Notes: generated by a model from the letters alone, not told the origin. A stretch of DNA of 63,826 bases, filler included, from Polymyxa betae A26-41 (GCA_003693705.1; 8 parts of 8 records of this genome joined end to end with filler, not necessarily neighbours in it); one strand, 5' to 3'; shown: positions 5,860 through 40,900, counted from the first letter of the whole stretch. Translations and numbers: made by a program.

Positions 5860-7154
5860 TTAGGGTTTGACCCGAAGCGTTTCCAAAGGGATCAATCCCA
5901 GAATAGACAGCAGATCGCGAATGGCGGCGACATTGCGGGCCAGTACGGCATCGTGCAGAATCGCCGCGGGATCGACACAGCCGACGTCGCGGACGTCCGC
6001 AGCAGCGTGCGCAGGAGGGCGTGCTGGCCCGGGGCTCGGACCAGGGCCAGTATGATTCGGTGAATGGATCGAGCGCAAGCGAATCGGAAATCCTCGGACT
6101 TGATGATGGCGGCGATCACCGCGAAACGTCCGGTCCGGATCAGGTTGTCGATCTGATTGGAGAGCGCATTGGCCGCGTCCGAAACGAACGGCAGAATAGG
6201 CTGCAGTTCGAGGTCCGTGAACTCCGCGAGATTCAGCGTGCTCAGATGAAAGGGCAGCCCGAGAAAGAATAAAGTTTTCACGAGACCTGGATCGGATCGA
6301 ATATAATTTTGCCGCAATAATCTCCGAAACTGCCGTGAGACTGCGACAATTTGAAGAAATTTTCGCAAATTGTTCCGGAAGACGAGCTACAATTTCGTTG
6401 TTCTCGTTGCTACAATATTAATGAACGATTTTAGAATATCATCGTGGATATAGAGCCGTACTGCTCCGGAATCAGCTGCACGGTTTTGATGAGATCCTCT
6501 GATAGAGACAGCTCCCAGTTCATGTCTATGACGATGGTTGCGGCCCAGCCGGGGATCAATTCGCCCACGGATCTGATCCGTCCGAGTCCGCTCTCCGTGA
6601 ACAGACGCAGAACGGCGAGCGGGGAATAACGCGCGGCCATCTGGAGCCGACTCAAGAAGAGGGCGGCCAGATCGGCGGTGAAGATGTCGGCGGAAATGGC
6701 GCCCCGGATGCGCGAACAGCTGCTGCAATGTCCGAAACAAGTCGCCGCCCGAAGGCCGCATTCGGATTTCGTGCAGCCACGCCTCGCGAGCTCGGCGTCG
6801 GACATGTCCGTAGCTTCGTTGGCTGAGCTGGGCCTGGGCGAACGCCGAAGCCTGCTTCAGGCCGTACTGGGCGTGCTCAACGATCAGGTCCAGCTCGAGA
6901 TCGCGTTCGGGAGACGAGGCCAGTACGGCGGGGGCAGCGCCCGGGCTGGAACCCGTCTCGATGTTGACCCCGGCGGCAGGGTCGTTCTGGATGGCGAATG
7001 CCGTCACGGACTGACGCAAGCCAGCAGTCCGCGCTCGAGGCTGCGTCAGCTGTGTCACTGGATCCAAGGCTGCAGTCCGCGCTCGAGGCTGCGTCATCTG
7101 TATCATTGGATCAAAGGCTGCAGTCCGCGCTCGAGGCTGCGTCAGCTGTATCAC
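5860..7154 (-). pseudogene. Frameshifted paralogue of the 2037-3377 ankyrin protein
   Basis: Collinear homology is spread over four ORFs: GELIPGW vs AELTPGW; LFFLGLPFHLSTLNLAEFT..PILPFV vs LFFLGTPLHLDQMKIAEFT..ALLPFV; PGQHALLRTLL vs AGQHARLLRMLL; ILHDAVLARNVAAIRDLL vs ILHRAVKAANAGAVRVLL. Confidence 0.8.
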
Positions 7155-7190
7155 TGGATCAAAGGCTGCAGTATATCACTGGATCAAAGA
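7025..7190. repeat. 48-bp tandem repeat, about 3 copies
   Basis: Unit CAGTCCGCGCTCGAGGCTGCGTCAGCTGTATCACTGGATCAAAGGCTG, encoding 16-aa LTQPRARTAAxDPxxQ on the minus strand. Confidence 0.9.
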
Positions 7191-11865: not shown

Positions 11866-13070
11866 TTTTATAAGCTCCTAACCCTAGTATCGAAGAACGT
11901 ACAGATAATCAATATCTCACTCGAATCCTACGCTTTGTCTGCGATACTAATTATTTCTGATACGGCAATGAAGTCTATCATCAGATAGATGGCATTGCAA
12001 TGGGCACGAACTGCGCTGTTTCATGTGCTAATCTCTACATGGATGATTTTGACATGGAATTCGCCCCAAAATGCATATTCTATCGTCGTTACATAGACGA
12101 TATTTTCTTTATCCTCGACACCAATCTTCACTCCATTTCAAACATTCAACATTCCATGAATTCTTTTATTTCTAAAATTTCTTTAGACTTCTCACTGTCT
12201 CCTTCTACAGTCAACTTCCTTGACCTGATCGTTTACCGCAACAACAACAACAGCATCGCATTCCGAACATACCAAAAACCCAACAATATTTATCAATACT
12301 TACCAAAAATGAGTTGTCACAATCCTGCAACAATTAAAGGATACATCAGAGGAGAACTGATTCGCTTCTGCCGCACCAATACTACAATTCAGGATCGCCG
12401 GACCATGGCCTTACTTCTTTATCATCGTCTACGCGCCAGAAGCTTCTCCGCTCAATATCTATCTTCAATTTTTCAAAGAGTTGATCTATCACGTCGATAC
12501 ATCGACTCTTTAAACTTCATCTCAAACACCGAACGATCAAACCCAATCGTCGCCTGCCCTAACATCTCCACGTCTGTCCCCAAAAAAATACCATTTATTC
12601 TACCATTTTACCCAAATTTACTTCGTCACAATATTTCCAGTTTTATTCACTATACCAATAATCACTACCTCACAAAAAAACTCAACATCACTATCTTCGC
12701 CGCCTTCAGAAGAAACCGAAACGTCATCAACCTCTGTTCCAGATCAAACATCTCTGAAGACCAGACCGCCTACATTGACCAGTACCGCCACCACCGTACT
12801 GCCCGTCAAAGCAACCGTACCATCCCTTCTTAATACTATCCTCACTAAATCACACGCTTATTTCGTCCGCTAATCTGTGTGCTACCTTTTCGCGAGCTAA
12901 GATCACGCCAAACTCAGCGCTCGAAGACGAATTGACCTCTCCAACTCCATCAATTCAGAAACGAGGGATAGTATTAAACTCATAGGCTAGTTTATTTAAA
13001 ACTTACTTTTCTATTTAACTTTAACGGGTACTTTAATAAATCCATATCCCCTTTTCCTCCTAACCCTAAC
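11866..13070 (+). mobile_element. Endonuclease-deficient Penelope-like retroelement (Athena/Coprina type), 5' part cut by the contig start
   Basis: RT motifs YHQIDGIAMGTNCA..ANLYM, YRRYIDD, VNFLDL and the PLE thumb TYQKP..YL...SCH...GELIRF are present. The ORF ends at 12833 with no GIY-YIG domain. There is an in-frame TGA at 11958-11960, and CCTAACCCTAACCC follows at about 13059-13072. Confidence 0.85.
12858..12971 (+). ncRNA. Hammerhead-ribozyme-like fold (type III topology, variant core)
   Basis: Elements seen: TTTCG-TC site (GTC 12865-12867); stem I CGCT/AGCG; core CT(C)GAAGA; stem II GAATTGA/TCAATTC; GAAA; and CGAG pairing back with TTCG. The core has an extra C. Confidence 0.45.
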
Positions 13071-13175: not shown

Positions 13176-15996
13176 CCGGGGTTGTCCACCCTGGGGTGGA
13201 CCACGGGGCTGGGAACCCGGGGTTGCAAGATACTCCGTGGGTTAAGTCCACGGATATTTGAGCTACAGGACATTAAAAGATATCAGTCGAAAGCTTTAGA
13301 CGGGATTTGAAGGAAATATTTTATCGGATATGCTCCACGGACTTTAGAAATAGATAAGGGTGATCTGGACTACACATATAACCCTAACCCCCTAAACCCT
13401 AAAACCCTAACCCTTATTTTTTCTTAAATTATTGCTAAATAAACGCCACTCTCAGACCATGTCTGCGACGACACCTTGTTCGCTGTATTGAGTCGGGCGA
13501 ACCGAGCCTCATCTCATCTCGGACCGCGTCTCAGAATCGAACTCCGCAACGTGCTCCGAGACGGCATCGAACGGCCTCCGACCAGCTTTCGCTACAGCGA
13601 CGAATTCCGTAAAATCTACCACAAACCTGACGAACTCGAACTTCGCATAAATGAGCAATTGCGACACGGCCTTCGATCCGTTGCTGGGCCTGTACGGCGC
13701 AGTACGAACCTCGCCTCTATCAGCGCAGCGCGGCCTTTCACGCTGCGATCATGACACCGTGGACGCCGGCGAAAGCGCCCGCATTCGTTCGAGAGGCGAC
13801 TGAAAATCTCTTCGTGACCAAACTCGGCGCTGAGAACGTTACAGACCGGACGCGATCCGATTTCGCATCCGCCATTCCGGGCCCAAGATCGCTTCGGATC
13901 GTTCGCATTTTCAAATTATGATTCTTTATTTTTTTTTCGATCTTGTCATTTATCATTAATCGTTACAAAAATCCAATTCATTTTTGTGCCGAAATTTTAC
14001 ATTAAAGAAACTCCTGAATGAATTGTCTCTTTTTTTGAAGTGGCGCTTTGTCGGTTTTCGATAACGATGCGAATTTGCTGAAGCAGATATATATAAAACC
14101 GGAGGCTTGATCTGAAACAAGCAGATTCGTTTGATGAAGTTGCGTCACATCTTGACCGATTCAGTGCTGTTTTGAAGCCATCTAGCAGTGATCAATATCA
14201 TCGTACTGGCACAATATGGTAATCGCGCAAATTCAAATCCACAAAGCACCAATTCACGCCTTTCAGATCGAGCCGTGTTTGTCCGCAAACGAGCCAAATA
14301 GTGAAAAAGGTTTGTTGACGACAAATGGTTCTCGTTCTTCCGGACAAGAATCGTGGGCTGAATCTGGATTCACTGTAGAGAATCAATACACTCATTGTCC
14401 AATTTCAAAGAGCTCAAGATTGCTGTCCAATTTTACAGAAAGTGTATTGATTTATTCAAGCGATGATCTTTTTCTGTGTTTTGACTTTCGCGACCAATAA
14501 AAATTCCAAATCTCGATCTTATGGAGCAGATAATTCATTATTATGTACAAAGGTTTTACTCTTTGACAATCCCATCGCACAGAACAACGGGACTTGTCCG
14601 ACAATACGGGGAGGTGTTTTGGCGCGGCCAGCTCTGTACTATCCGAAACCAGATGCGGTGAAGTGGCACGGCCCTTTCAAACTTCTTCAGGTACGACATT
14701 CGTTATCGCTTGCCTCAAAGTCGTTCGGAAATTGTGTCCAAGCGCCAACGAAAATGGGATCGCTCCATTCTAATGCAATCGCGGCTCTATTTAAAAAGGT
14801 ACGACGCTGTTTCTTATTGTTAAGATATGTTTATGATTCGGTTATAGGATGATACCGAGATCTCGTAATGGTCTTACTATACCAGATTGCGAGAAAAGAA
14901 AACTTACCTGAGACGAAGAGAGAAAAGTTTGAAATGATTTTGATGATATCAACAAAGCCAATGAGCCACAGTAGTAAAAAGCACTCAGAATAGAAAACGA
15001 TTTTTTTTTAAGATGGCTCATGATTTTGGTTTTTCCGGGACCGATGACCTCCTCTCAGCAAGGCGCTCAGCTGATGGAAAGCATACCTTTGATTCCATTT
15101 CAACGCAATTGAAAACATCGAAATTATTGACAATACAGAATGGCTATAGGCGTTTGGTTTTGAACGAAACCAATTCGACTGTGGCCAGCTGGGTAACTGC
15201 CGGCTCGGTTGCAATACCAGCTACTGCTAACAATGTATCATCCTACACGACAGATGACTGAAAGGAAAAAGTCATCATGGATCAGAGTGAAGAGCAGAAA
15301 ACATTAACGAAATGAAAGAGCATGCAGAGAATGAGCATTGCTTTCCTTCATTGGACGAACAAACGGGTTTCGACAACCTCCATACCAGTTGTTTATGGAG
15401 CGGACGAGCGGGCTTCGGGAGCCCTGGACCAGATCGTCTAAAAGTCGCACAAAAGCCATGTTTGGCTTTTACAATCATGAAGCGATCTACATCTTATGTT
15501 GTATGGAATCATTTTTTTCGGGTAAAAAACGAAATGGCTCGTGTGCTTGGCTGGGTTGTTACGAAACGATTTTCGACAGATTCGCAATCTTTCGGGCCTT
15601 TTACGACAGGTATTTGCGCGTTTTTTGTCCAGCAGCGCCGAAGGAAGGTAAATTCGGCTTGAGTGATTGTTGGCATAATGTCATGATAAACAATGTTGCT
15701 CGATGCAGATAATTAAATTGTCAAACAGACGAACAAAAACTGAAACTTCGAACAGACGAAAAAATAACTGAAACTTCGCAATCACGAACATGTGGAATGA
15801 GCTCTATTCCTGTACAGATTCGCTCACAATAGTCCCGTCAACAAAGTGTTTTCACGAGGCGCAGGACGGGTCTCAGGGGCAGCCCTGCTTTCGGAAAGTG
15901 TTCTTACCCATCTACTTGGACTCGTCATCACAATCTTTCTTCTATATAAAGGAATGTATTAAACGATTGTATTTGATCTTAACGAGGGCGTGCCTT

Positions 15997-18900
15997 TCAG
16001 CAAGAGAATTGACTGTTCAGCAGGGCGTCGCTGACGTAGTGCGATCCTCCACCGCAACGCCATCCAGATCCGACATTATACCAGCTGAATCCAGCTGGGC
16101 ACGGCATGATCCGACGTAGCTTCTCTTGAATCGCTTTCGCCTTGCGTTCCTCTGCTTTTCGCTTTTCTTCATCTTCCTCTTCCTTCAGCTTCCGAATACG
16201 CTCTTCATGCAGACGCTTAGCTTTTTCAAGTTCAGCCCAATCTTCGTCGCTAACGCCAGGATCGCGACCTGGTGTCGAGCAGTCGTCGCAAGCGATTTCT
16301 TCAATATATGAAGTTGTAGCACTTTGTTCTTTCAGGAATTGAGGTTTTTCAGAGGGACGGCTCCGTGAATCCATCATCAAGGCCTCCCTGAGAAAAAAAT
16401 GGTAAAAAATGATAAATGTGGCATAAAAAAAGAATATCCACGCGAAAAAACAAACGGAAAACAGTTAGAGCCTACACGAGTTTCTTCGTGGATTCACGAG
16501 GCTTCGTTTCAGGCGGCTTACGCGCTGAAATCATCTCGGCCATTGCTTTCTCAACGTCTGCAGTTTGTATTGTCCGTTCGTCTTCAGGATGATCTTTAAC
16601 GCGAGATGAACGGGCAGATTTTGACTTCTTCCATAACGTGTTGACATCGCGACCGTTAGCCCAGCCGGGAAATTTGATTAATTGCTCACATCCCGATTGG
16701 ATGATGTCGATCGCACCTGCGATCGAAAAGGATTCCTTGGCGGCCTGGTTTTTCAAGAACAAGGCACAATCGGCAGCGTCCCAGTCGTCGAAATCGAAAA
16801 CGTGAGAGATGCGAGACTTCAGGCCCGAATTGTGGTCCAGCATCACATCCATATCGCTATATTCGTTCAATTAAATTCGCAGAGCACGATGGCGGTGCTT
16901 ACGCGGCGTATCCGGCTAGAATGATGACCATGCCGTTGTATTGGGGATCAGTCATCGCTGCCACCAGAGAGGTGATCGCTTCCGATCCATAGTGATCATT
17001 TCCAAGTTCATAGGCCTGAAGAAGAAATTAAGAATCCAAAATAGCTGTCTGCGAACGTAATGTCAATACCTCATCAATAAACAGTACGCCGCCTCTGGCT
17101 TCACCCAGCTGCTGTTCGACCGCCTTCTTCGTCTGGCCGAGATATTCACCTGAACGAAATAAACGTCGGGCTGCGGAAGATCGACAGGGACAGCTTACCT
17201 GTCAGGCCAAGACCGCTCGTTTCTTTTACACGGTTAGTGGGAAGGATACCCAATTGGAACAAAATCTTAGACATGACCCGAGCGACTGTCGTTTTCCCAG
17301 TGCCGGGATTGCCCTGGAGTAGAAAATCAAACACTCACAAAGGAAAGCGACATCAGACCTACACGGAATACGAAATGTCCGATGTCAGGTATCGATGAAG
17401 CGTCGCCTTCTCTCTTGGCGACAATAACGCCGTCTCGCAGCTCGATTAATTTAGCTCTGATGCGATCAATCTTGTAAAGGCCGTAGAGAAGCTTCAACGG
17501 GTCCATCGTGTCGTCAGCGGATTCTCCTTCGATGTCGTCCGGCTGCAGCGTGATCCCGCCCGCGTCAGAACGTGCTGACGCTTTAGCAAGAGCGGCCTTA
17601 AGCAAGTTGTCGATCGCACCAGCGTTACCAAAATGTTCTTGGCTGCGTTGCATGGATAGCACCTGAATCGCCTTTTCACAGACGTCCTTCGTGAAAGCAA
17701 TTTCTTGCGAAACGCATTTCGAGCGGAAAATGTCCTGACGAAATTAGCATTGAGACGATTGAGTCATGATTCAGTAACACACCAGGAGTTGCCGGTCGTC
17801 ATAATCTTCAAACCGGAACGCATAGTCGAAAGCGAAACGACGAGCGAGACCGGGATTGGAGTTGCGCATCATGTCCGAAAGCTGCTTCTCGTATCCGAGA
17901 AGAAGCACGGCAATATCGTCGCTTTCGGTATCTTGCACCTTCTCGACGATAACGTCGAGCACTTGCTTGCCGTACAGTCCGTCGTCGAGGTTGTAGGCCT
18001 CATCGATGACCAACACTTTGCCGCGGGCGTTTTCGATGATACTGGCAGCTTTCTTCTGCGACTCCCCAACGACCGACCCGACAAAATCGCTCGCTGTCTT
18101 AAATACAACCCCTCCCACAGATAAGAAGTTGAGTTCTTTGAGAAGACGCGCGTAAAGACCCGCACATGTCGTCTTTCCCGTACCTATTGTCAAACATGTC
18201 AGACTGACAGAGTCGTCAGAGAAAACCTCAGGTGAGACCTACCAGGATTGCCCAGGAATAAGCGATTCAGCATGACCGGACATGTTGGTTTTCCCTCGAG
18301 TTTAAGATTATAGTTCTTTGCACAAACATTGACGAACTCCTTGACGGAGTCCTTGACCGAGGCCCAACCCGTCTTTTTCTGGAATTCGTCGAGGATCTTC
18401 TTGACCTTTGGATTTGAGAGCGGGTTTTCTCCGACGACGTCCTCGATCTGGATTTCCATGATGGAGCTGTCGAAATCGTCATGAGACATGCGACGGTTCG
18501 TAGCTTCGTCGATCATTTTGCGAACCGCTCTTGCGTTGCCAAACCCTTTGCGGTTCGCCGCCTTCGACAGCTCACGGGCTACTAACTTCCCAATCATCGG
18601 GTCGGCGCTCCAACCTTTGTCGTCAAGCTGTGAAAACCAGATCGTCTCAAGTTCGTCCTGGTCGAAGTCTTCAAACGTAATCTCTTGGAATCGCGATTTC
18701 AAGCCTTCGTTATAGCTGAAAAGCTTGTTGTGAATGTCATCTGAAATAGCAATGTCAATCAAACTAGAAGTGTTAATATGAAGCTTCTGACCTGTGTATC
18801 CTGCTAAAATAAAACTGATGCTATCTCTCAGGTTCTCAGAGGCAGTCAAAAGTTCAGCGACAATCGGTTTGCCCTTGAAGTCGCCCCTAGGGTCCAGATC

Positions 18901-21900
18901 GTACGCTTCATCAATGATTATGGTACCATTCTTGCATTCTGAAATCGCTTCACGGAAGTTGTCGATGCCATCATCTTTGACACTTTGAGCTGTTAGCTCT
19001 TTGAACTTTCCCGATTGTCGCATGCCGCAATCTTTGAAGATTTGGGCGAACAGCCGTGCAACCGTGGTCTTCCCAGTCCCTATATAACAGCAGTGAGCAA
19101 TTGAATGAATATACATCGAATTCAATATACACCTGGATTCCCCAAAAAGACAAAATTTAAATTCATCGCGTTCTTCTGCAGGGTCTTGGCGTCCATCTTT
19201 CTGCGCTGCATTGCAGATCTAAATACTGACAACGCATCGAGCTTTACACGCTCGAGCCCGGTCATCCCCAGAAGCTTCTCCATGGCATCCGAACGATATC
19301 CTTCAGAATCTTTAAGCTGCTCCCATTTCGCTTTTGTCGACAGTTTGCCGGAATGACTCGGGGCTTTGATTGCGCTTGGTGGCCGTCGAAGAAACTCGAG
19401 CTCTTGATCAGAAACCCACGGATTGGCGTGGTCACTATAGCACTTGGTGAAAACCGATAAGCATAACCAGCTGTGGTCGGGATTGTCTTTTTGTGCTAGT
19501 CGAGACGCGGCAAGAATAGTCAGCGGATGCGCAGGTCGAGAACCAATTTTGACGACATACTCTTGGAACTTCTCCTGAGCCTCTGGCACTGATTGCACAA
19601 CGTGCAATAATTCAAGGCAATGGAATAGTAGCAGCTCCGGATGCTTTAATTTGGCAGAGTGGTTCTCAAGACAGTTGAGGCCAGCAAATGGGCTCTTTTT
19701 TGACTCGGCATTAAAAAACTGGAGATTTGCTTTGAGATCTGCTTCGAGAGAGGGCGTGACACCCTTGCTAAATAGATGTCCATCCCATGAGGTGAATTTC
19801 AGCATAGACAGCGACGGAGGAAGCAGCTTTAGGGTCTCCAGATGACGCTGCTTGAAATCATCGATAGCAACATCAGCCGAGGCTTCCATCGGAGGCAAAA
19901 CGCTTTCCGTCTGAATGTACACGGGGCTGTAATTGACGATCTCACAAATCGAGCTCGCCACCGACGCGATCTGGTCACGGGTTGCAGACACGATATGGGT
20001 CGCCTCAAGCGCATACGGATCCCATATGACCAACGACGTTGAACCATCTTTTGCATGCAGCTGAACGGCATCGAACCCCAAACTCCTCTGCTTTTTTATC
20101 CATTGCAACCGCTGTTGTACTTGCTGACCAACGGACTTGCCCTTGTGCTTCTTTGTACGCTGCGCCTGAGCATTCGGAACGTCGGTCGGGTCTACAAGAA
20201 CATGGCACATGAACGCAACCCCAATGACAAAGTGCAGATCGCCAATGGTTCGGTCACGTGAGAGAAGAATGCGCTCGAGGTTTTCACGTGTCAGTGGAAA
20301 GACTTGCACGCCACTAAGCGTCTCGCCCTTAATAAGAGTACTCCAGTTAAACTTTTGTGGAGATTTGCTCAGTGGAATGAACCATTGGGTCATATGCCGT
20401 TGGAAGATCGGACGGCGCCAGACGTTCCTGATCGATAGACGCCATGTTCGGAACTTGTCCATCATCGCCAAAATTCTGGAGATCAATTGATCCTTGTTGT
20501 GTGGCAGCTTTTGCTTGGAGATGAGGTGCGAGTCTTTGAATACTTTCGGAAGAAGATCTGTATCGATCCAAGGACAATCCGCTTCACCAATGGCCTGTAT
20601 GTCCAGCTCCAAACTATTCGTTACGCAAGTAGGGCAGCGCTCGGGGACGCCCTGCGAGCACAGGCGATATTTGAAACTGTGTCCGGAGCCGCACGTCCAG
20701 GTGGAACTGCTCAAACAGCTTGGGCGCTGCGTGAAATGGCAGGCCTGCTCGATTGTAACACCACACACATCAAAGTTCCAGCAAGGCCGCTTGACAGGGT
20801 TGGAGCATGGGCGGTTTAGGTTGGACTCTCGATGACGACATTGAAACGAGATCTCGTGTCCACAAAGTCGATTTTCCGAAACGACGGCATCGCATTCCGG
20901 AAGGGCAGAGGCTGATGTCTTACCGATCTGCGCGATCGCTTGGAAACAGGAAATTGAGACGGAATGGCCACAGGAAGAAACGCGGCGGAAATTAACAGAG
21001 ACTGTGCACTTTGAGATGAAGCGAGACAGCTCAGATGGGACTGCGCTCATGACAGGCAAATTGTCGTCGAAGACGCCCTTCGAGATAGCGTTCCAGGATT
21101 CGGACGCCAGAAATTCAGCTGACCAGGGCGTCCATCCGTTGAAATTTCGCAGGTGGCACGGAACAGAAACAGGGTGATTGCAAAGCGGGTTTGATGACGG
21201 TACTTGAACATGGCATTTGCCGGGCTTTCTTGCATTGGCGCATGGCATTGGTTCCTCGTGACCGCATCGTCGAAGCAGAGTGACTTGAGTTGAGCATTTG
21301 ATATGAATTCCGCAAAAATCCCCGAACGCACTCTCGTCGTCTTCGTTCACGATAGTAAGAGGAGTAAGGGATACTTTTAGCGCACCCGTTGCTAAAAGTG
21401 CTTGTTCCTTGTAACAGACCGAAGAGAATTCATGACCACATTCAGGGTTGGTGATGATCACCTTTTGATTGCAACGCGAGGCAGAGAGTGCCTGGCTGAA
21501 AGCCTCACTGCAAGGCAGCGATACCTCATGACCACATTTTCGCCGGAGCACAACTTTTTCCTTGCAGGCGAAGTCCATCGGGCCATAGTGTTGACCCTCG
21601 AGAATAATTCCGTTTGTGTCAGGTGTGGCTCCAGACCAGGATTCTAATGTTTCCGCTAGTTTGCACGACAGTTTGGCTGAATGCCCGCAGCGAGGAAGGA
21701 GGGCATTCACTGTTTGGTTGCAGGTGCTCATAGCTTGACCGTTTTCGTACTGATTCTTCAGATAGCATGCGACGATCTTCTCGTGTCCACACTTTGGCCG
21801 GTAGGCGACCGTGGCTTTGCAATGAGCAACCTTGTCAGGATTACGTTCCCAGTCGGTGAGCATGGAGCACGCCAGCTCAAGCTCATGCCCACATGGATAC

Positions 21901-24900
21901 ACATACGGACGGAGAGCCGGCTCGGTACACGTAGGCCATTCAGAGACACCAGTTGATATATCGTTCTCATCTGCACAGGACACTCGAATCGTATGTGAGC
22001 AAGGCATTTCCACATCGACAGGGGCTTGACATCGGTAAAGTTTCAATGCGTCCTCAATGCTGTCAACTGCGTTATGCAACTGAAGCGGACGCCTTGACAA
22101 TCCTTTGTTTGGGCGAAGTTGCCCTTTAGCGACGGCAAAGACAACCATGCAAGTGAGATCCTGCTTATGATGAGGACACGGCGACGGAATCGCAACACTG
22201 CATCGCTCATTATGCTGTAGATTTGGCCAATGGCACCGCAATCCACAGAGATGACCGCAACTCAGAGCCGATAGACACATCACGTCACAGAATCCAAGCT
22301 TCACCTGTAGGGCAATTAAGCCAAGTGCTGAAAACTCAAAGCGATGAAGTACCTGATCGGCAGTACGAGCCATGTGGATGCTATCTCTGTGCAGGGGGCA
22401 GCACAGAGGAAGTTGGTTGCCCATACGGGGGGAGTCATACACCACGATCGATTTATCGTGGTTGTCGGGCTTGCCGGGGTTGTTCAGAATGTTAAGCGCG
22501 CGCTTCCAATGCTCTGCGCCTTTCGCGTTAAAATATCCGGCATTGCCGACAATGATCATGCCGAGACGGGCTCGGCTCAGCAGAACAATCATTCTGAACG
22601 AATAAAATCAGAAATACACGAAGAAACTGTAGTTATTCCGCTGACCGATTGCGGAGCTTCACAAACGGAGACGTAGATTTGTCGTCAGCTACCAGTGATA
22701 CAATCACGAGATCAGCTTCATCGCCCTGGAACCTGTAAGCAATTTAATCGTCGGAATCACACAGCGGCATTGCTCTAAATCACCGGTCGACAGTGGATAC
22801 CACACAGGCGTCTTCGACATGTGGCTGATTTGGAGGAGAACGAAAAGGAAGAAGTTTCAGATCTTGCAGCTTTCTCCTGATCAGCATGAGCTGGCCTACG
22901 AAAAGTTAAAAGAAAAGACATGCCTGCTTCTGATTTCGACGAAACCTTTATAAGGAGTGATCAGGGCAATCGACGACTTTGGTACACCACAATCACTAAC
23001 ACAGCAGTTAAGATGCCGAGATTCATGATCACAATCCAGATGCAACGTACGTACACAAGGTATTTCGCAAGGGCACAAACCATTTCTGATTCCAGCTTAT
23101 TGACTTTGCTGAGCCCAACTTGGGCTCTACTTAGTGATCCAGTGTGCTGCCAGAAGAAAACAGACGGCGCAACGCCTGGCACCTCTCTCCCTTTGTAGGC
23201 CATTTTCGGTATCAAAGAACTTTCAAGGCGATGGAGAGAAGATTGACCGACTACTTTGGTAAGGCATATCTCATGATCGATGATAGTTGTGATCTCGCTA
23301 TAGAATTGACGCGTAAGATCAGCAATGTTAGGGCGCATACGCCGCTGTATCGAGAGAACCGTGTACGGCACACGATTTTCTTGTGGCGCACGTACAAGGC
23401 GTTCGAACATGCTGATGGAAACAGTCAAAAAATTATCGCCAACAAAACCCCTTACCTCACGTTGATCTTGTTGATTCTCTCATAATCGAATTTTGACATT
23501 AATGATGGAGACTATCGCATAGTCAATTTAAAAGCAGGGAAAACGATGATGAGAACTAACCAGTTGAAAGTGATCACCGATCTGCTCAAACTTGCACGTT
23601 GATGAACCGATACAGGATAACAGAAGCGGTTCAAGAACCTCTGAAGCTTCCTCGACAATGACGGCGAATGGGTTCAAGGCGCGGATCGCCTCCAAACGAC
23701 CAATACAGCTGACGATGGTGCCGCCCAATACTGCTTTGCCTTCGTAGGCCCGCGCCTTTGCCCGAACTTCTGCATCGAGTAAGTCGTCGTGCCTTCGGGT
23801 GATGGCTGTCGCTATCAACGACATGACACGATCTTGAAGCCCACGTGCAAAGGACAGGAATTCTTCGATGATTCCCCAGCGATCGTCAAGAGAACTTTCC
23901 CACGTCCACAGTGAGGAATGTATGCAAACGTGTTCACGGCCAGTAGGACATGCTGGCGGATTTTCCTCCAAGCAGATATCGTCTTCGTAGATATGGTCGT
24001 CGATTGTGGAAACGCCAGTTATGGCATCATCGGTTCCGAATACTTCTCGAAGATGCACAATATGATCCGCCTCTTCAACGTCATCAGGATCGTCAATTGG
24101 GGCGTGCTCGATATCGTCAGCCATGACCCAATCATCGTCATTGCCGGTCTCCTTGTCTTCAATAGCTATGTCGCCAGCAAGATCGGCTGGCACAGATTCG
24201 ATTGTTTCTTGGGGAAAGCCATTATCGGGAACAGTATGCGCTAAATTTTCTTTAAACTCGCTTGACATTGGTTCATCAACAATCATTTCAACATCGGGAG
24301 GGAGTGCGACGGTCGTTGAAGGAATATCATCAATGTTCCGATGAGGACCGTCGTTATGGGCGCCTGATTCTCTTCCTAGAAAAGGATTCTCCTCTGCGAC
24401 CTCGTATTTCTGATGGTCGCGACAATATTTGGTCCCATGTGTAGGTTTTGATTTACACGGCTTGTTCTTCTTATTGGTCAATGCTTGGCATTGAGAATAC
24501 GACGATGGCGACTTGGCGGCGACATCGGCCAAGTGCTGATGCCTGAGACAGTAAGGACTCTCAGATGTTCCAAACATTCGACATTGAGTGGCACGGCAAG
24601 GGATGGAATGCTGTGTACAGACCATCGACCCTGGAGTTGTCACCAGATTTTTGCACCCATAGGTAATGCAAACAGGATGATCAGAGCAGGTATTATGAGG
24701 GTATTCGTTCAAAGCAACTTGCGCAACAGCACCCGATTCGACGCAGACTCTACAGGCATGCTCCAGGCAGAAGAGCTGTGGCACAGGTAGGCGTTGCTCG
24801 TCGCAAAACTGGATACTGCAAGAGTGCTGTGCGCAGAAGAGCTTTTTGGGTGCCTTGGGTTCTTGACAGGGTGAATTGAAGCCATCCAGATACTGACAGC

Positions 24901-27900
24901 GATGCTTCGGGCAGAAACAGGATCCCGGATCACAGGGGCTCATGCAGATGGAAATCGCAGGCTCAGGTTCGGCATCATCATCTCCAGAACTGTAAGGATG
25001 CCCAGCATCCGCATCATCAAATATTTTGAAACAGCATGGCGGTTGTGGCACGAATCCTATAAGACGCTCAACAATGCGACGATAAAGTGAAACGGCTGAG
25101 CATTACCGGTGAGCCATTTCCATAAGATTTCGCTGATATCGATGTTTTGATCGTAATGCTGAACGAACATATCGGTGGAAGGTATTGCAGGATAGCGAAA
25201 CGTACCTTGATTCCCTCATACAGCGTGGAGATCGCATCTCGTGTGATGGAGCAATCGTTGTTTTGAACACTCTTAAAATGACGGGAGAAGCGCTCGAAAG
25301 TCAAGCTAGGAAGGCATTCCTCCCAAGTAGCATCATCAAGAGTCCACTCCTCGCTGTTCGCTGGTAGCAGTTTCAGAACATCAACGGTCCTGAGAATTGG
25401 ATCAATGCCAGATAAAAATCGTCGCAATCACTCCATTACCTGGCGATAGCCTCCAGCAATGTTGATGCTGCGTCATATGTATTCTTCTTCCTTTGCTTGA
25501 CTTGATCGGCATTTGAGACGGTTAATAGCATGGCATCCCCTCGTGCACATAGCAGAGACTGTAGCTTTCCCGAAAACGACATATAAGTCGTCCGGAGGTC
25601 GCAAATCTTTCTCAGTTCCCGTCGGGCCGACTTAACTCCAGGGTCGTCATTCCACACGCTACGTTCAGCATATCGCGAAAGAGCGGACTCTTGGCAACCG
25701 CCTCCAATCCGTGTCAAAGAAACACCCCGTTCCGATTTAACCAGGTCCATTAGGAACTCATCGATAGCGTGGTTCTGCAATCTGGTCAACGGGACAGTGA
25801 AACAAAACGGATTATGCACACACCTTGTAACTTAGAACCAAAATTGGAGGGTGCCCAACGGATGGATTAGTCTTAATCCACAAGTCCCTCACAATAAGCA
25901 GAGCACGAGCCATCACCACGCCGACGTATGATTTCCCAGTACCAGGTGGCCTGTGAAAGAAAAAGTCAAAACTTTTGACAGCAATGTCGTGAATGGTATC
26001 TGACCCAAGAGTGCAATGAACCGGATGGGTTAGCGCCTCTAAGAAGCTTTGCATCTGGCCTTGATCTAAAGTGGTTGATTCGATCAGATTCTCCAGTTTT
26101 TCCTGAAGTTGGTCACGAAAGTGTTTATCACGCCTCAACTGAACGATCGGATCGATGGTGGAATTATCAATGAGCTTCGCCACGTTTGCTCTGAATACAT
26201 CAGTACTCAGATGATGGTCTTGCACGGTATACGGAGAGAGCTGCGTCGGGAACTCTGATGTTTCTATGCCTTCACTGTCAGCATCATCCACAACTCTCTC
26301 TGGCAACGATAATCGCGGAGACATGTTCAGCAGGGCGCCATTTTGAAAAGGCATCCGAGAAACGCTTTGATGTCCCAAAGCGATGAGCACATGGATGAAT
26401 TCAGGAACGAAGATTTGACAGTCAATGATCGCAATCCGATCACCGGGTTTTAGCGGGACATTAGTTAGGCGAGTCACTCGGGAAACGTTCGATAAATCAA
26501 ACAGTGAGAATGCGATCTGTTATACACAATAAGACATGCAAAATATCACACCACCAATCAAACCAAACCTGTCTTTTTTCACGTCGTTTAAATTCATCAC
26601 GTGATTCTTGCGGCGAATGCACTACGATCTCACCCCACATGATGCGATCGGAAAGGCGTAGGCTGGATTTAGGACCTTCTGGCAGGAACACAACACCGAT
26701 CAGATTCGGAGCGCAGAGTCGCCGTGTCGTCTTCCAGTTCGGTGCGATTGCGGGCGGGCGTCGACTCTTCAGCTGACTGGCGTAAATGCGGCCGTCGAAG
26801 CCGACAAAGGCGACTTGCGCATCGTAGATGTTCGTGGACGCTCGAGGTCCTGGTGGGCCTCGCAATGCATCTCTGGCCTTGGTCGCACATGGGCCACAGA
26901 GGCCCCGGTAGTGGAACTTATTCGGGCACGCGAGCACGACCGACCCTGAGCAGCCCGGTGACAGACAGGACAATGAGCCGGAGTTGTCTACAGGCATCGC
27001 CCATAGAGTGCGACCGCAGGAGCCCTCGTTTCCGACACGATGAGGGCAATGTGGCGTAAGGGCTTGGCAGCCGAGCTCGAAGGTCATCGCAACCCAAATC
27101 TTAAGCACTGTTTCGAAATAATCTTCCGGAGAATCATAGACACCTTGTGATAGGGTCCCGGGCACCTTCATTACTGGAAGTTTCGTTGGTTGGAATATTG
27201 ATGTCGTCAATAACCATGATATCGTGGCAGTACGCCAATCTAGATACGCTCCAGAGCCTTCGCCAGATTTCACCAAAACAGGCGGCAGCGCTTCCGTCAC
27301 CGAAGAAGTTTGACATGTTTTAATCATCCAAGGTTTTTCCAAGTCATCCTAAAAACGTTGTTAAATGAGTTAGGAGGAAAAAAACGTCCAAACCAGCAAT
27401 TCGTATATTTTCCCTTGTACGAGGCGATGCTCTTTAACTGCAGCGTTTAAGCCGCGGGATGCAGCCGCCAGCATTCCCTGAAAGTGCTGGATTACGTCAG
27501 ATGGGGCCAGATTCCAGGACGTTTTCATAAGTCGCTGAAAGAGTTGATGAATTTACAACCTGGTCACATAGCTCTGATACCTTGACAGCGTTCGCACACG
27601 CTTCAACATTCCTCACAGCGCGCTGCTCGTCCACCTTATGAAACAGCTCGATAAAACGCTGCATATTCTTTGAGTAATCTGAGTCAAAAATTGATCAGGA
27701 TGGGAAGGATAGCAAAACGCACCGAGTACCTGCCAGTGGAATGATTATGACGGGGGCATCCATGGAGAACGGGATTCGCGCCAAGACAGTCACGAGGTTG
27801 GCCATGTCTCTCAAATTCAGAGACTTGCGCCCTTCGTCCGACCATGCAGAAATCCAGAGATCGCGACCAAGACCCGACGACAGGTACTTTCCGAGTTCGA

Positions 27901-28180
27901 CATCGCTTTTTCGAGCGAACGATTCGATAAATGAGGACATCTTGCTATTCTGGTCGAAAGACCCATCCTCCAGTGATAGTGTACTGCTGGATTCTCCGCG
28001 ATTTGGTGCTCTCGAGCGTCCACGACCCTCCGGATGGTAAGATCCGCGACCACGGCTCGGGTGTGACGCCCCTCGCCCTCGATCCTTGGACACAGCCGAC
28101 CAGCGACCACGACCGCGTGCATTGCCGCCGGCCCCGGAAGACGGCGGCCTTCCTCCGCGCTGCCAACCTCTTGACGACAT
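15997..28180 (-). CDS. Multi-exon gene: ZNFX1-like SF1 (Upf1-like) helicase, NF-X1-type zinc fingers, three CbbX/SpoVK AAA+ ATPase modules and a C-terminal Cys/His motif
   Basis: Starts with an RGG-rich N-terminus (ATG 28180). Helicase motifs: G|PPGTGKS, VIVEEASEVLEP, IGDHFQL, SMFERL, QRRMRP, ITPYKG|Q, TVD|RFQG, SRARLG. Many CGH/CxH fingers lie at 22300-20630. There are three GNPGTGKT Walker A loops, each with IDEAY, and the C-terminus is CPAGFSWYNVGSGWRCGGGSH. The GT-AG introns checked (17314-17362, 18184-18242, 19080-19132, 27679-27729) restore the frame. Confidence 0.9.
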
Positions 28181-28889: not shown

Positions 28890-29519
28890 CTCTATATAGA
28901 AATCTTTCAATAAAATGCTTTATCTAAGAAATGACGTCTGGGAGAATTGCACCAAAAGCTATGATATTGATGCGTGCGATCGAAATGTGATCAAACTCGG
29001 CATTGTTGCGAATTCGGTCCAGGTCCGGGTCCAGTACGATCAGGACCTAGATGGGAAAGATCTGCCGACAGATGGGATCGGATTGTGTTCGACCGCTTCA
29101 ATGGTTTTATTGAAAATTGAAATCATCGTAAAGCTTTGGTACTCTGTAATTGCGAGCTTGATGATATCAGGAAGAGCACTTCGCGATGATAAAAAAGATC
29201 ACAGAATCAGTCTGCCGAAATATTCAGTCGGAATGAAATTCTTGGTGCGATATGGCGGCATGCTCGAATGAACTCTATCATCAAATCGTCAAATGTTTTC
29301 GGAAGTTCAGACTGGCCAAAAATATCTAGAATCATGGCTCTAGATTGACCAACAGTACCTGAAATAGTCAGTGTCGCAAATGATTCAAACAGGTCCTGAT
29401 TTTCCTTCTCCTTTTTTTTCAAACACTTTTTTCAAAAGATCGTTACAACCTGTCAACATTTGTTCTTTGCCTTTTTTGCTGAATAATGACTATGGAAGAT
29501 TCAGATCATGATTATGTTT

Positions 29520-30418
29520 TAGGCTCTTTAAAAGGCCGAGAAAGAACCATCCAGCGACATCTGTGTCCTTTTGCAGCTCCTTATCCGGATCAAATTGGCA
29601 TTCTCCAATCTTCCCTTGTTGCACGCAGCTAAAACAGCTGATTTAGTGATGAATAATCAAAACGGTTTAATGGTGACGACCTCTCGAAATGGGAACAAAA
29701 CTCTATCTGGACAATGTCGGCAGATAGCTTTATCGCAGAGTTGAGAACAATCTCTGGGCGTTCATATTGCGGAGATGGCAATTTACGAAATTGTAACTTT
29801 AACGCATAGCCTCCAGACCAGGAGTGTTTAGAGAATGGCCCAGCTGGTAGCCCTGTTATTGCTTCCTGCATGTAAATCGTTAAAGAAAACACTTTTAAAT
29901 CACAAAAAAGTTGAGTTACATTGTTATCAGTAGTGATGTCAGAATACAGAAGAATGTGTGAGATATCCCGTGTATATTCATTGGTGCCAATATGATACCA
30001 GGATCTCCAAGAGAAATTCTCCAGAATAGAGGGTGATATGCGAAATACGACACCACCGAAACAAGACCTTTGGTACAGTTGCTCAAAAGTCTTTGTCTTC
30101 TTGAACTGATCCCAAGCCCTGTCGATGGCGTCAAAATTGGTTGCGAGCGGTTTCGCTACGCTCTCTTGCGTTGATCGAATCGAGTTGGCAACGCTGTAGT
30201 GAATATATAGCCTCGACTTTGGAAAATATCTCATCTAAATTGCAAAGGTACTGCCTGCGATTCCCACGATCTGTTCCCTGAGGATAATATGGTTGAGGGG
30301 AGAGCTCTCCTTGAAGAAGGATGTTGATGGCGGCATCTACATGGGTGCAGTGCTGAAGCTCTCCAACACAGAGCTCGATCACGTCAGCATGCGGAAGACT
30401 ATAATCTGGTGCTGGCAT
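29520..30418 (-). pseudogene. Hypothetical gene, probably spliced and/or frameshifted
   Basis: Overlapping ORFs 30131-30418 and 29629-30234 have protein-like composition. No family was recognised. Confidence 0.3.
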
Positions 30419-37913: not shown

Positions 37914-40900
37914 CAGCACTGTACACACTCGAGCACTTGACGTTAAAATAAAATGCGCGACGACTCTACTTCGCCTATTCACAGCATTACCCTCGCAGGC
38001 CTCGCTTGGCGTCGTCTTAAAAGATTAAGAGTCCCAGGCTCCACCAATGAGCGAACCCACTGTTGAACGCCACCTCGTTCCCGTATTCGACGGCTCCAAC
38101 TTCCAACAATGGCGCCAACGTATTGCCAACCTCCTCATCGAGAAAGATCTGGATGATATCACGGGGTTCGATCTAACATCCCTCCTTCCTCTAGCATCAC
38201 AACCATCTCTAACAGATAAAGCTAAAGAGGACCGTAAAGCCCGTGCCGCGATCCAGCACCGAGTCAATGACACCGTCCTCACCATCATTGAAGGATGCCA
38301 AACGGCCTATGACACCTGGAAGCTGCTGCACGGCACTTATCAACGTAAATCCACAGCGGCATCTGTCGCCGCGTTGAAGGCCGCCATCACTACAACAAAA
38401 GGAAGTCGGTCCATGCAAGAATACATCGCAGATGTCCAAAGCAAGTGCCGCCACTTACAAAATACCGGCGTCACCATCGAATCCCTTCCGGTTGCCATTA
38501 TGCTCGCCAATCTCCCAGGCGATTACTCCGAAGTTACCTCCGCGTTAGACACACTGGATACTGTGACCATGCAAAAGGCATCAGCAATGCTTCTTAATGC
38601 CGAAATCTCTAAGAAGAGCTCTTACTCATCGTCCACACCTATACCAGCATCCATCGCCGAACAGCTACAAAGTCTGCAAAAACAAGTAAACGCCTTGTCA
38701 ACGACGGCTAAAACGATCCCCCGAAAGCCATTTACTGGTGTCCCATGCTCGGTACACGGGCTGAGATCTACCCATACTGATCAGGAATGTCGACAACAAC
38801 AGAATAAGGACAGTAAACAACCATCTTCACTGTACTCTGTGCCCGCGTTATCGTCTAGAGTCAAACCACACGAGCAAGAAGACTGTTTCTACTTAGATTC
38901 GGGCGCTGGTAGACACATGGACTTCGATCGAACGGCAATGTCAGAGTATCAAACCTCTCAAGGTCCAATAATCCAACTTGGCGATAGTTCGACGATTGAA
39001 TCTGTCGGCCACGGTTCGAGCCATGTAACACTACAGTACGGGCGAGGAAAGATTTCTGATGTCCTGCACGTCCCGGATCTTGGCAAGAAACTCCTCTCCA
39101 TAGGGCAGAGCACGAACAAGGGTTTCAAATTCTGGTTTGACAGAGACTCCTGCAAAATCTTTGAAGAGGATGGATGCATTCCACCCACCGGGAATGTTAT
39201 TGCTGACGTACCCAAGACCGATGGCAATCTTTACAAACTTCAGAGTGAAAAGCCCATTGATAGTCCTGTCCAGGCAAACTTCGCAGTGAGAGGCTCGAAG
39301 GCCTCCCTGAAAACTTGGCACGAACGCACAGGACATCTGAACTACAAGGACCTCAAACGGTTATCCGAAGGTAGCGCCACTGGCATTCTCGTCGACGGAC
39401 AGATCTCCGACGATGACAATGGATTATGTGAGCCATGCATCCTTGCTAAAATGACCAGGGCGCCTTTCTTGAAAAGTTCAACAATTACCAATCGTCCTGG
39501 ACAGCTGGTTTTCTCTGACATAGCTGGACCTTTTCCTGTCCCCGGGATCTTCTCATCAGCGGTTTACTTCGTGACGTATCTCGATCACTTCACCAAAATG
39601 CCGAGGGCCTACTTATTGCAGCGGAAATCACAACAGTTTGAAGCACTAAAGATGTATAACCAAGAGATGTTTCGGAACAACGGTAACCATGTCTTTCGCT
39701 TAGAATCCTTCCAAAGCGACAACGCCGGTGAATACCTATCAGAGGAGTGTCAACGGTATTATGAAGAGCAGAACATCCACCACCAAACCATCGTCGCCTA
39801 CAATCCTGAATCTAACGGATCAGCTGAGCGTCTTAACAGGAGCATCATGGAGCTTGCAGAAAGTTTGCGACTCCAAGCCGGGTTGAGCAGTGAATTCTGG
39901 CCATTCAGTGTGGGTACAGCCTTGTACCTGCTGGCGAGACGACCACATTCATCGCTCCCTGGACGCATCACACCGTTCGAAGCTTGGACTGGGCGGAAGC
40001 CATGCATCTCTCACCTGCGAGTCTTTGGCTGCAACGCTTGGGTCCATGTACCGAAAGCCCTTAGACGGAAGCTCGAGCCCCGTGCGCGTCGAGCAATCTT
40101 CGTCGGCTACTGCGACAAACAGAAGGCTTACAAACTACTGGACCTGGACCGCCAAAGGATCGTGGTCAGTCGGGACGCCGTCTTCGATGAGATTTCCTTT
40201 ACGTTTGTCAGAAAAGCATGTGGAACGCCAGAGGACGTAGCCATCCAGAGTGCACCAAGCTGTGTTGTAAATGACGATTACGGAACAGAGCATCACGCTG
40301 CACAGCCGGCCGCCAACGAAGATCTAGACGACAATGGAGATTGGCTGGATGACAGCGTCACTCTCGACGACGATGAAAGGCTGAACTTAACATCGTTCGA
40401 TGATGATCTAGAATCGTCGTTATCGAATTCCCATGTGCTTGATGATACCGCGGAGGATGCTATAGGTACCGACATCAGGCCATCCACCAGCAGGGCCCGA
40501 CCTATCGAGACTCGCCACTCGACCCGATCGCGACCTCCAATCCCGCGGTTTGTCCCAGGAAACTTCTGTATCACCGGTAACAACGATGTGTCACAATACC
40601 AACGCCCGCCATTAGACGGTGTCAAAGCCTCAGCCGTTCCCATTCCGTCGTCGTTGAAGACTGCCCTGGATAACGAGCACTCCGGCCACTGGTTCGACGC
40701 CGCGCGTCTGGAGCTCGACACACTACGAAAATTCGGCACATTCTCATTGACCAGTCTCCCCACCGGTAGGAAGGCCATTGATTCCAAGTTTGTATTCAGC
40801 GTGAAGCCTCAACCTGACGGATCTGTATCTAAATTCAAGGCACGTCTAGTCGCAAAAGGGTTCTCACAACGACCTGGTCTTGATTATAATGAGACTTATT

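Follow-up and report, generated by a model that had tools for sequence, protein, structure and literature searches.

The window analysed here is a stretch of 63,826 nt, filler included, from Polymyxa betae A26-41 (GCA_003693705.1; eight parts joined end to end), and on its minus strand lies a single gene for a giant protein of 3,629 amino acids (aa), in which a helicase resembling that of ZNFX1 is followed by a zinc-finger array and three CbbX-type AAA+ modules. Contigs of public runs place 25 introns in the gene, each of 44-88 nt and all with GT..AG ends on that strand, and splicing at these joints gives 26 exons, 10,890 nt and one open reading frame (ORF) with zero internal stops. The unspliced stop-to-stop frames, read on the minus strand from 28180 to 15997, carry helicase, cysteine-rich and AAA sequence. 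Introns of Plasmodiophora brassicae are also short, at about 60 bp (PMC4471660; papers are cited in this text for those parts of them that were available).

The transcript evidence consists of intron-free contigs, their molecule type unrecorded, from 6 public runs (3 samples, 2 studies) that were selected for containing the gene, and its 5' joints come from contigs of one sample. One contig of 9,638 nt (run X1, record 1) holds the helicase core, the zinc array, the three AAA modules and the stop in one piece, running from inside the exon of the 1B region (192 bases 5' of the joint 26516/26569) to position 15971, and overlapping contigs push the cover to 28097, which places the 5'-most 83 coding bases outside it. 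Because that one contig carries the helicase through to the C-terminus, this is a single intact spliced gene, neither two genes nor a pseudogene. A reading made earlier from the DNA alone (the sequence-only reading) had expected one spliced gene of 3,600-3,800 aa and had named separate helicase and AAA transcripts, or unresolved stops, as signs to the contrary; the length falls within that range and neither sign was found. For two adjacent genes or a pseudogene it could be argued that contigs are assemblies rather than single molecules, and a joint in run X6 does speak against an intact frame, as a 59-nt skip at 22734-22794 is discordant and would shift the frame in helicase motif V. The same locus has an in-frame joint in runs X1-X4 (one sample), and the skip, which ends in GT..AG on the plus strand and overlaps an annotated intron, could be an antisense splice or a mis-splice. 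Set against a continuous stop-free ORF, a contig over the junction and an identical fusion in dozens of relatives, this alternative has next to no probability.

Of the named proteins the closest is PBRA_008449 of P. brassicae (P0235, 3,691 aa), with which 2,194 of the 3,629 residues (60%) are identical, and 73-81% in the catalytic domains. A homologue search with the AAA region of the homologue P0001 gave 1,324 matches, and our counts rest on the best 120, among which Phytophthora is over-represented. Our own family profiles found an ADP-ribosyltransferase (ART)-like domain in 74 of these and the family helicase in 71, with both in 69 of the 71. Within this ZNFX1-related family, which is widespread but uncharacterised, the P. 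betae gene is an ordinary member. Apart from the make-up of the zinc array, the parts listed in the sequence-only reading are present as it described them (Table 1), the RGG tail among them, which is RG-rich (10 RG and 1 RGG in aa 1-62); that layout overlooked a PARP-fold (ART) domain and a tetratricopeptide repeat (TPR)-like domain predicted between the zinc array and the AAA modules.

Table 1. Parts of the P. betae gene, positions counted from the first letter of the window.
Feature	Position	Strand	Basis or remark
Whole gene	15997..28180	minus	26 exons, 3,629 aa; spliced contigs
RG-rich tail, aa 1-78	27947..28180	minus	sequence
Conserved N-terminal domain, aa 79-240	27319..27946	minus	position of the ZNFX1 armadillo; equivalence inferred
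Likely stalk and 1B barrel, aa 265-560	26307..27246	minus	profile and structure matches
RecA1 first half: Q motif, Walker A (aa 661-668), motif Ia	25649..26114	minus	alignment, PDB match
Large 1C insertion, aa 746-1275	23912..25648	minus	helical, Cys/His-rich (901-1110) and acidic parts
Acidic plug-like motif, aa 1218-1233	24038..24085	minus	family alignment
Helicase Walker B (EEA) and motifs III-VI, aa 1276-1660	22452..23911	minus	Pfam, PDB, alignment
Zinc-finger array, aa 1675-2255, 13 units	20619..22409	minus	ends in treble-clef-like finger, aa 2229-2253
Predicted PARP/ART-fold domain, aa 2271-2470, triad apparently lost	19974..20573	minus	AlphaFold model, fold searches
Predicted TPR-like helical domain, aa 2541-2678	19350..19763	minus	AlphaFold model, fold searches
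AAA+ module 1, aromatic pore loop absent	18475..19292	minus	Pfam, alignment
AAA+ module 2, sensor-2 Arg absent	17573..18402	minus	pore position Val, often His in relatives
AAA+ module 3, all motifs present	16520..17500	minus	Tyr3311 aligned to CbbX pore Tyr114
C-terminal unit, aa 3541-3629	16000..16266	minus	lead-in motif, charged coiled-coil-like stretch, finger

As had been proposed, the helicase belongs to superfamily 1 (SF1) and has an EEA Walker B (aa 1361-1366). In our 73-row alignment motifs Q, I, Ia and II-VI are all intact, Walker A is identical in all 57 rows with residues there and Walker B reads EEASE in 65 of 65. Kinship with ZNFX1, also foreseen, is borne out by the best PDB match, human ZNFX1 (9q9z; E 2.4e-44 with the Plasmodiophora homologue, 1.6e-77 with the family profile), which stands far ahead of UPF1 and aquarius (about 1e-13 and about 1e-25 with the same two queries); these two and Sen1 are the next structural relatives. 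Zinc fingers placed directly after RecA2 and a large 1C insertion with an acidic conserved patch are further features in common with ZNFX1. However, the insertion spans about 530 aa here and about 290 in ZNFX1, and the P. betae protein has an extra cluster of eight conserved Cys/His inserted in the 1B region (aa 331-384), each retained in 47-51 of 52 rows. A profile comparison of the N-terminal domain with the ZNFX1 armadillo scored 1.1 bits, below significance.

ZNFX1 is auto-inhibited by an acidic plug helix (residues 828-836) in insertion 1C, and it also has a rigid finger stalk and Miz and RZ ligases (Naydenova et al., bioRxiv 10.1101/2025.10.14.682297). The same work has single-stranded nucleic acid in the groove, so the label of double-stranded RNA sensor given to ZNFX1 in the sequence-only reading is not transferable. 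In the P. betae insertion an acidic motif appears to resemble this plug. Among 65 covering rows Asp1218 is kept in 64, Arg1230 in 63, His1228 in 62 and a Gln at 1227 in 59 (Val in the P. betae protein), in a segment that is otherwise variable, being 28% identical to the P. brassicae orthologue. By eye, and with a numbering offset of 87 residues (taken from the paper's Walker B numbering against the PDB chain in the family-profile alignment), the ZNFX1 plug resembles aa 1222-1230 in its acidic start, Ala-Asp, Ile and terminal Arg. Two results weigh against this resemblance: the HMMER alignment sets the ZNFX1 plug 27 positions off the by-eye register, and a direct search with the exon of the motif failed to reach the plug.

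The long NF-X1 array claimed from the sequence has 13 C-x-H-x(3-7)-C units, the first of which aligns with a ZNFX1 finger and is the one unit that fits the NF-X1 pattern. Of the HMMER profiles that had been suggested as a check, AAA and AAA_lid_6 matched, whereas Pfam zf-NF-X1 matched neither the P. betae exon scanned nor any of three homologues. For the treble-clef region the best Pfam score was DUF4379 (E 0.001). Beyond it the domains were modelled. A cluster-representative search with aa 2195-2691 gave 86 matches, of which 68 were aligned with 12 longer homologues and the P. betae stretch (81 sequences), excluding zinc-repeat-only matches and, for their size, most very long sequences. The AlphaFold model from this alignment has a predicted local distance difference test score (pLDDT) of 88.5 and a predicted template modelling score of 0.61; a single-sequence prediction of aa 2252-2698 has a pLDDT of 38.6. 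The leading matches of model residues 77-277, whose order of strands and helices we take to be the PARP layout, are ART folds (Z 8.1-8.7, root-mean-square deviation (rmsd) 3.7-4.7, 147-158 residues aligned). They include SRO1 (Z 8.5, rmsd 4.4, 154 aligned), RCD1 (Z 8.3, rmsd 4.7, 158 aligned), the pseudo-PARP of TASOR (Z 8.2, rmsd 3.7, 147 aligned) and tankyrase (Z 8.1, rmsd 4.1, 154 aligned), with PARP10, MbcT and a viral PARP-like protein as further matches. Because a Pfam scan of 29 proteins covering the region found no PARP, the domain is detectable by its fold alone. Against the assignment, Z-scores of about 8 are middling by the tool's own grading, with an rmsd of about 4 Å, and Foldseek against the PDB returned nothing at E 0.001 or better for the region; the ESM Atlas gave no usable match to it. 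Model residues 347-484 match TPRs (Z 8-9.4), a common helical fold.

The PARP-fold domain is predicted to be catalytically inactive, with its H-Y-E triad apparently absent. At positions mapped by topology rather than by residue-level superposition, no more than 1 of 59 rows has His (aa 2335-2338), and none has Tyr (2360; 58 rows) or Glu (2450; 57 rows). An active divergent ADP-ribosyltransferase, modifying RNA or protein once the helicase engages, might be argued from the active enzymes among the fold matches (tankyrase, PARP10, MbcT) and from position 2449, one off the expected Glu, which holds an acidic residue (Glu or Asp) in 28 of 57 rows; with Thr-Ser at 2449-2450 in the P. betae protein and the triad counts as they are, we regard such activity as very improbable. 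The PARP domains of TASOR, ZAP and RCD1 are themselves inactive; that of TASOR is required for silencing and binds single-stranded RNA (ssRNA) weakly, while ZAP destroys viral RNA, and ZAP and TASOR counter viral RNA and retroelements (Douse et al., 10.1101/2020.03.09.974832). TASOR, ZAP/PARP13 and RCD1/SRO1 have in common with the present domain a PARP fold lacking the triad, but identity is 6-14% and the domain here is embedded in a helicase-AAA chain; the likeness is one of fold and does not imply direct descent.

As modelled, the PARP-fold and TPR-like domains stand where ZNFX1 carries its Miz and RZ ligases, and the prediction of both in the helicase-AAA family is new here. Family proteins are annotated with PF26600 and PF26601, which were absent from our own Pfam scans. 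These entries probably cover the zinc array, because P0017 and P0019, which retain the TPR and roughly two thirds of the ART domain, have neither entry and no zinc array; one of the two may already denote the ART domain.

The three CbbX-type AAA+ modules expected from the sequence are confirmed by Pfam AAA and AAA_lid_6 matches, and NCBIfam assigns them to the SpoVK/CbbX/EccA clade (E 1e-87 to 1e-120 for P0001). Walker A, Walker B, the GY sensor-1 and the Arg finger are retained in all three (73-row alignment), as is an Asn just upstream of the first Arg finger, and the sensor-2 Arg is found in modules 1 and 3. The pore tyrosine of module 3 corresponds to CbbX Tyr114 in a weak 25-residue match that agrees with the PDB search, and in CbbX this residue is needed for threading (PMC5437159). 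CbbX, EccA1 and SpoVK, which belong to the same AAA subfamily, are homohexamers of single modules, whereas the P. betae chain has three differentiated ones, of which the first two are without the pore aromatic or the sensor-2 Arg. EccA also has a TPR ahead of its AAA (PMC11513918). Eukaryotic members of the SpoVK/CbbX clade with an N-terminal SF1 RNA helicase were described as "poorly characterized" and predicted to act in RNA processing by Delerue et al. (2024; PMC11513918); the GY sensor-1 and the Asn preceding the Arg finger, which mark this clade, are found in the P. betae modules. The available text, by which alone the two are compared, mentions for those members neither a PARP-like domain nor a TPR, a plug or a count of modules. 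In our literature searches, with most subscription papers beyond reach, no description of the helicase-ART-AAA family turned up, and the fusion itself is mentioned by Delerue et al. alone.

A FastTree built from 112 modules of 27 proteins puts the module 1 sequences of all eukaryotic architectures in one clade, and does the same for modules 2 and 3 (support 99-100); additional modules fall with module 3, in most cases next to the copy of their own lineage. Among the 64 listed proteins with both ART domain and C-terminus, three modules are found in 36, four in 22 and five in 6. On this sequence evidence the array appears to grow to four or five modules through copying of module 3, the complete one. 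The AAA triple and C-terminal finger likewise look to be a portable cassette, as 17 of the 120 listed matches carry the array and C-terminal unit on other N-termini, ankyrins included, and a TPR profile scores just upstream of the AAA in 16 of 26 non-family proteins (mostly weakly, at 7-31 bits, with one of 71). Eight matches (P0081, P0084, P0087, P0090, P0091, P0097, P0098 and P0110) join ankyrin repeats to the triple-AAA cassette and are helicase-free. Six others (P0075, P0076, P0079, P0083, P0105 and P0107) have 5-9 tandem SpoVK-like modules in clades separate from the eukaryotic triple; some are named bacterial (Bacillus) and bear TPRs. In P0068 and P0072 a fungal-type helicase and triple AAA are doubled in one predicted chain, giving six modules in near-identical copies, and these are possibly fused tandem gene models.

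The terminal CPxGxxW..GWRCxGGSH motif noticed earlier lies at aa 3596-3616, and ten residues of the finger, Cys3596, Cys3611 and His3616 among them, are invariant in all 41 rows chosen for having it. An RZ finger consists of four zinc ligands and a catalytic Cys/His pair (bioRxiv 10.1101/2025.10.14.682297), and the present finger, with three conserved Cys/His, has half that number. The RZ pattern matched none of 235 proteins scanned, and the RZ family PF20173 was unseen among the Pfam entries listed for the best 120 matches. A PDB sequence search with the C-terminal unit gave coiled-coil noise only, and the ESM Atlas no usable match. We conclude from the sequence that the motif differs from an RZ finger. 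RNF213 is likewise very large and has tandem AAA+ modules as well as zinc fingers; the parallel to it drawn in the sequence-only reading is weak because the motif is no RZ finger, RNF213 is not among the PDB matches listed, and what is shared (size, tandem AAA+, zinc fingers) is analogy only.

It could still be proposed that the protein is a ubiquitin ligase of the RNF213/ZNFX1 kind, in which the Cys-Cys-His finger would be a minimal transthiolation module or the treble-clef finger would bind an E2. The invariance of those three residues would suit this, as would the placing of the finger after an amphipathic-looking stretch, since the RZ finger comes after a ubiquitin-binding helix (bioRxiv 10.1101/2025.10.14.682297), and RING/U-box scores are scattered over 4 of 29 proteins (E 0.02-0.16, all below cut-off). 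With only half the RZ Cys/His conserved, the RZ pattern absent and the treble-clef region best scored as DUF4379, a ligase seems improbable. A Miz domain was undetected in fold searches that barely covered model residues 1-76, and the RING scores are sub-threshold. By its lack of the RZ finger the P. betae protein is not a human-type ZNFX1; it joins a ZNFX1-like front to a CbbX/EccA-like back, ending in a pseudo-PARP, a TPR-like domain, three AAA+ modules and a different finger.

Organisms named for family members among the listed matches are chytrids, oomycetes, diatoms, a dinoflagellate, Chromera, Hydra and Clytia, so the layout, found in Plasmodiophora too, extends to alveolates and hydrozoans, with three paralogues in Hydra. 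In a Diplonema member both the zinc array and the ART domain are missing, and a match from a beetle assembly may be a contaminant. No vertebrate or land plant name appears among the 120, and no search was aimed at those groups. Fungal proteins that combine a helicase, a triple AAA and this C-terminus, as expected in the sequence-only reading, are indeed found among the homologues; these fungal-type matches (P0068, P0101-P0103, P0115) share the AAA cassette, and neither the ART nor the TPR profile scored in them. They carry PF25396, which we take to be a ZNFX1 domain and which is unseen in the family's listed Pfam entries, and the family stands on a long branch away from them. In a tree of 45 rows and 1,157 columns (quick search under LG+G4, excluding fungal-type proteins, redundant rows from oomycetes and a number of partial rows), the P. 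betae and P. brassicae proteins nest with the chytrids Zopfochytrium and Nowakowskiella (support of 100 in the Shimodaira-Hasegawa-like approximate likelihood ratio test). A clade with a Spongospora-labelled protein was rejected (approximately unbiased test, p 4e-10, under a simple model and with the hypothesis picked after the tree); the Spongospora data are a filtered de novo assembly (PMC4471660). Transfer between chytrids and a plasmodiophorid ancestor is one reading of this tree among others, which include hidden paralogy and a mislabelled transcriptome sequence.

A role in small-RNA pathways, like that of Hrr1, SAD-3 or worm ZNFX-1, would have the helicase hold silenced transcripts for amplification by an RNA-dependent RNA polymerase (RdRP) while the AAA part recycles Argonaute or RdRP complexes. 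ZNFX1 and Hrr1 both have a 1C insertion and both act in RNA interference (bioRxiv 10.1101/2025.10.14.682297), and P. brassicae has Argonautes and a Dicer-like gene; no RdRP, however, is predicted there in the available text (PMC4471660). With PF25396 unseen in the family and its long branch from the fungal-type proteins that carry it, we consider this role improbable.

We suggest, as the leading but tentative interpretation, that the protein is an RNA-gated AAA+ remodeller for the surveillance of foreign or aberrant RNA. Observed are one spliced ORF, all helicase motifs and a Walker A, Walker B and arginine finger in each AAA module. By analogy with ZNFX1, the acidic motif would plug the RNA groove until ssRNA displaces it and the helicase ATPase is switched on, and the zinc array would be a stalk bearing the C-terminal machine. 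The predicted pseudo-PARP and TPR-like domains could be non-catalytic binding surfaces for RNA or client proteins. As in CbbX, the AAA modules would close a ring, most simply from two chains of three, and the pore tyrosine of module 3 would draw in a client peptide, so that a ribonucleoprotein (RNP) is stripped or remodelled; the output would be mechanical here, as opposed to ubiquitin in ZNFX1. The targets, the least secure step, may be viral or transposon RNPs, and we infer a defence role, antiviral or anti-transposon. Variable module number, a cassette on other N-termini, Hydra paralogues and a non-vertical tree are traits that, as seen in the sequences, would be typical of conflict systems. 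The sequence-only interpretation of the protein as an immune sensor-effector is, taken as a whole, partly supported.

Several observations weigh against this surveillance role. Proteins with four or five modules misfit a simple two-by-three hexamer, and the top ART matches RCD1 and SRO1 are plant stress regulators rather than defence proteins. A well-conserved full-length P. brassicae orthologue and transcripts in 6 of 6 runs suit a housekeeping protein equally, one with the same biochemistry acting on endogenous RNPs (decay, granule or ribosome-linked quality control) and having no part in defence. The RNA processing predicted by Delerue et al. and the structural relatives UPF1, aquarius and Sen1 would also fit such a protein, but it would be unusual for such genes to vary in module number, shuffle a cassette, expand into paralogues and give a non-vertical tree, and the named matches are scattered across lineages. 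We therefore rank housekeeping second to surveillance, as somewhat unlikely, and ahead of the small-RNA and ligase proposals.

A bolder and somewhat unlikely reading would take the family for an ancient eukaryotic antiviral machine, contained in one chain and spread laterally. In it a plug-gated ZNFX1 helicase would sense RNA, the choice of target would fall to a pseudo-PARP of the ZAP/TASOR kind together with the TPR, and viral or transposon RNPs would be torn apart by a portable AAA+ cassette that is tuned through copies of its pulling module; the terminal Cys-Cys-His finger would possibly be a new catalytic or ring-closing module. ZNFX1 links RNA sensing to ubiquitin, and the present family appears to keep the sensor and to trade the output for an AAA+ motor behind a pseudo-PARP; helicase and stalk would then be a modular RNA sensor with interchangeable effectors. 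The family offers a testable candidate for RNA surveillance in groups where cell-autonomous defence is poorly known (plasmodiophorids, chytrids, oomycetes and diatoms), with tractable homologues in Hydra, Clytia and chytrids.

PADLOC matches to MkoA and IetA were set aside as generic SF1 and AAA similarity. Both flanks of the gene (14000-15600 and 28952-30000) lie under low-depth contigs and the neighbouring genes are probably transcribed; the flank frames scanned, two left and one right, gave zero Pfam matches. Elsewhere in the window, two similar frames with a hydrophobic signal-like start lie at 56815-59564 on the minus strand (56815-57546 with 57522-58004, and 58515-59564); the two scanned had no Pfam match, and they are possible tandem paralogues of a secreted protein. 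A reverse-transcriptase (RT) fragment at 11961-12833 (plus strand; RVT_1, E 7e-5), in a strongly C-skewed stretch, is by its motifs presumably Penelope-like. An uninterrupted Copia-type retrotransposon frame of 1,400 aa with gag, integrase and RT domains occupies 38029-42231 (plus strand) and may be a recent insertion. Related-looking frames occur at 2034-3377 (plus), 5860-7175 (minus) and 53681-54469 (plus), one of them opening with a signal-like sequence and weakly matching ankyrin at its C-terminus; plasmodiophorid secretomes are enriched in ankyrin proteins (PMC4471660).

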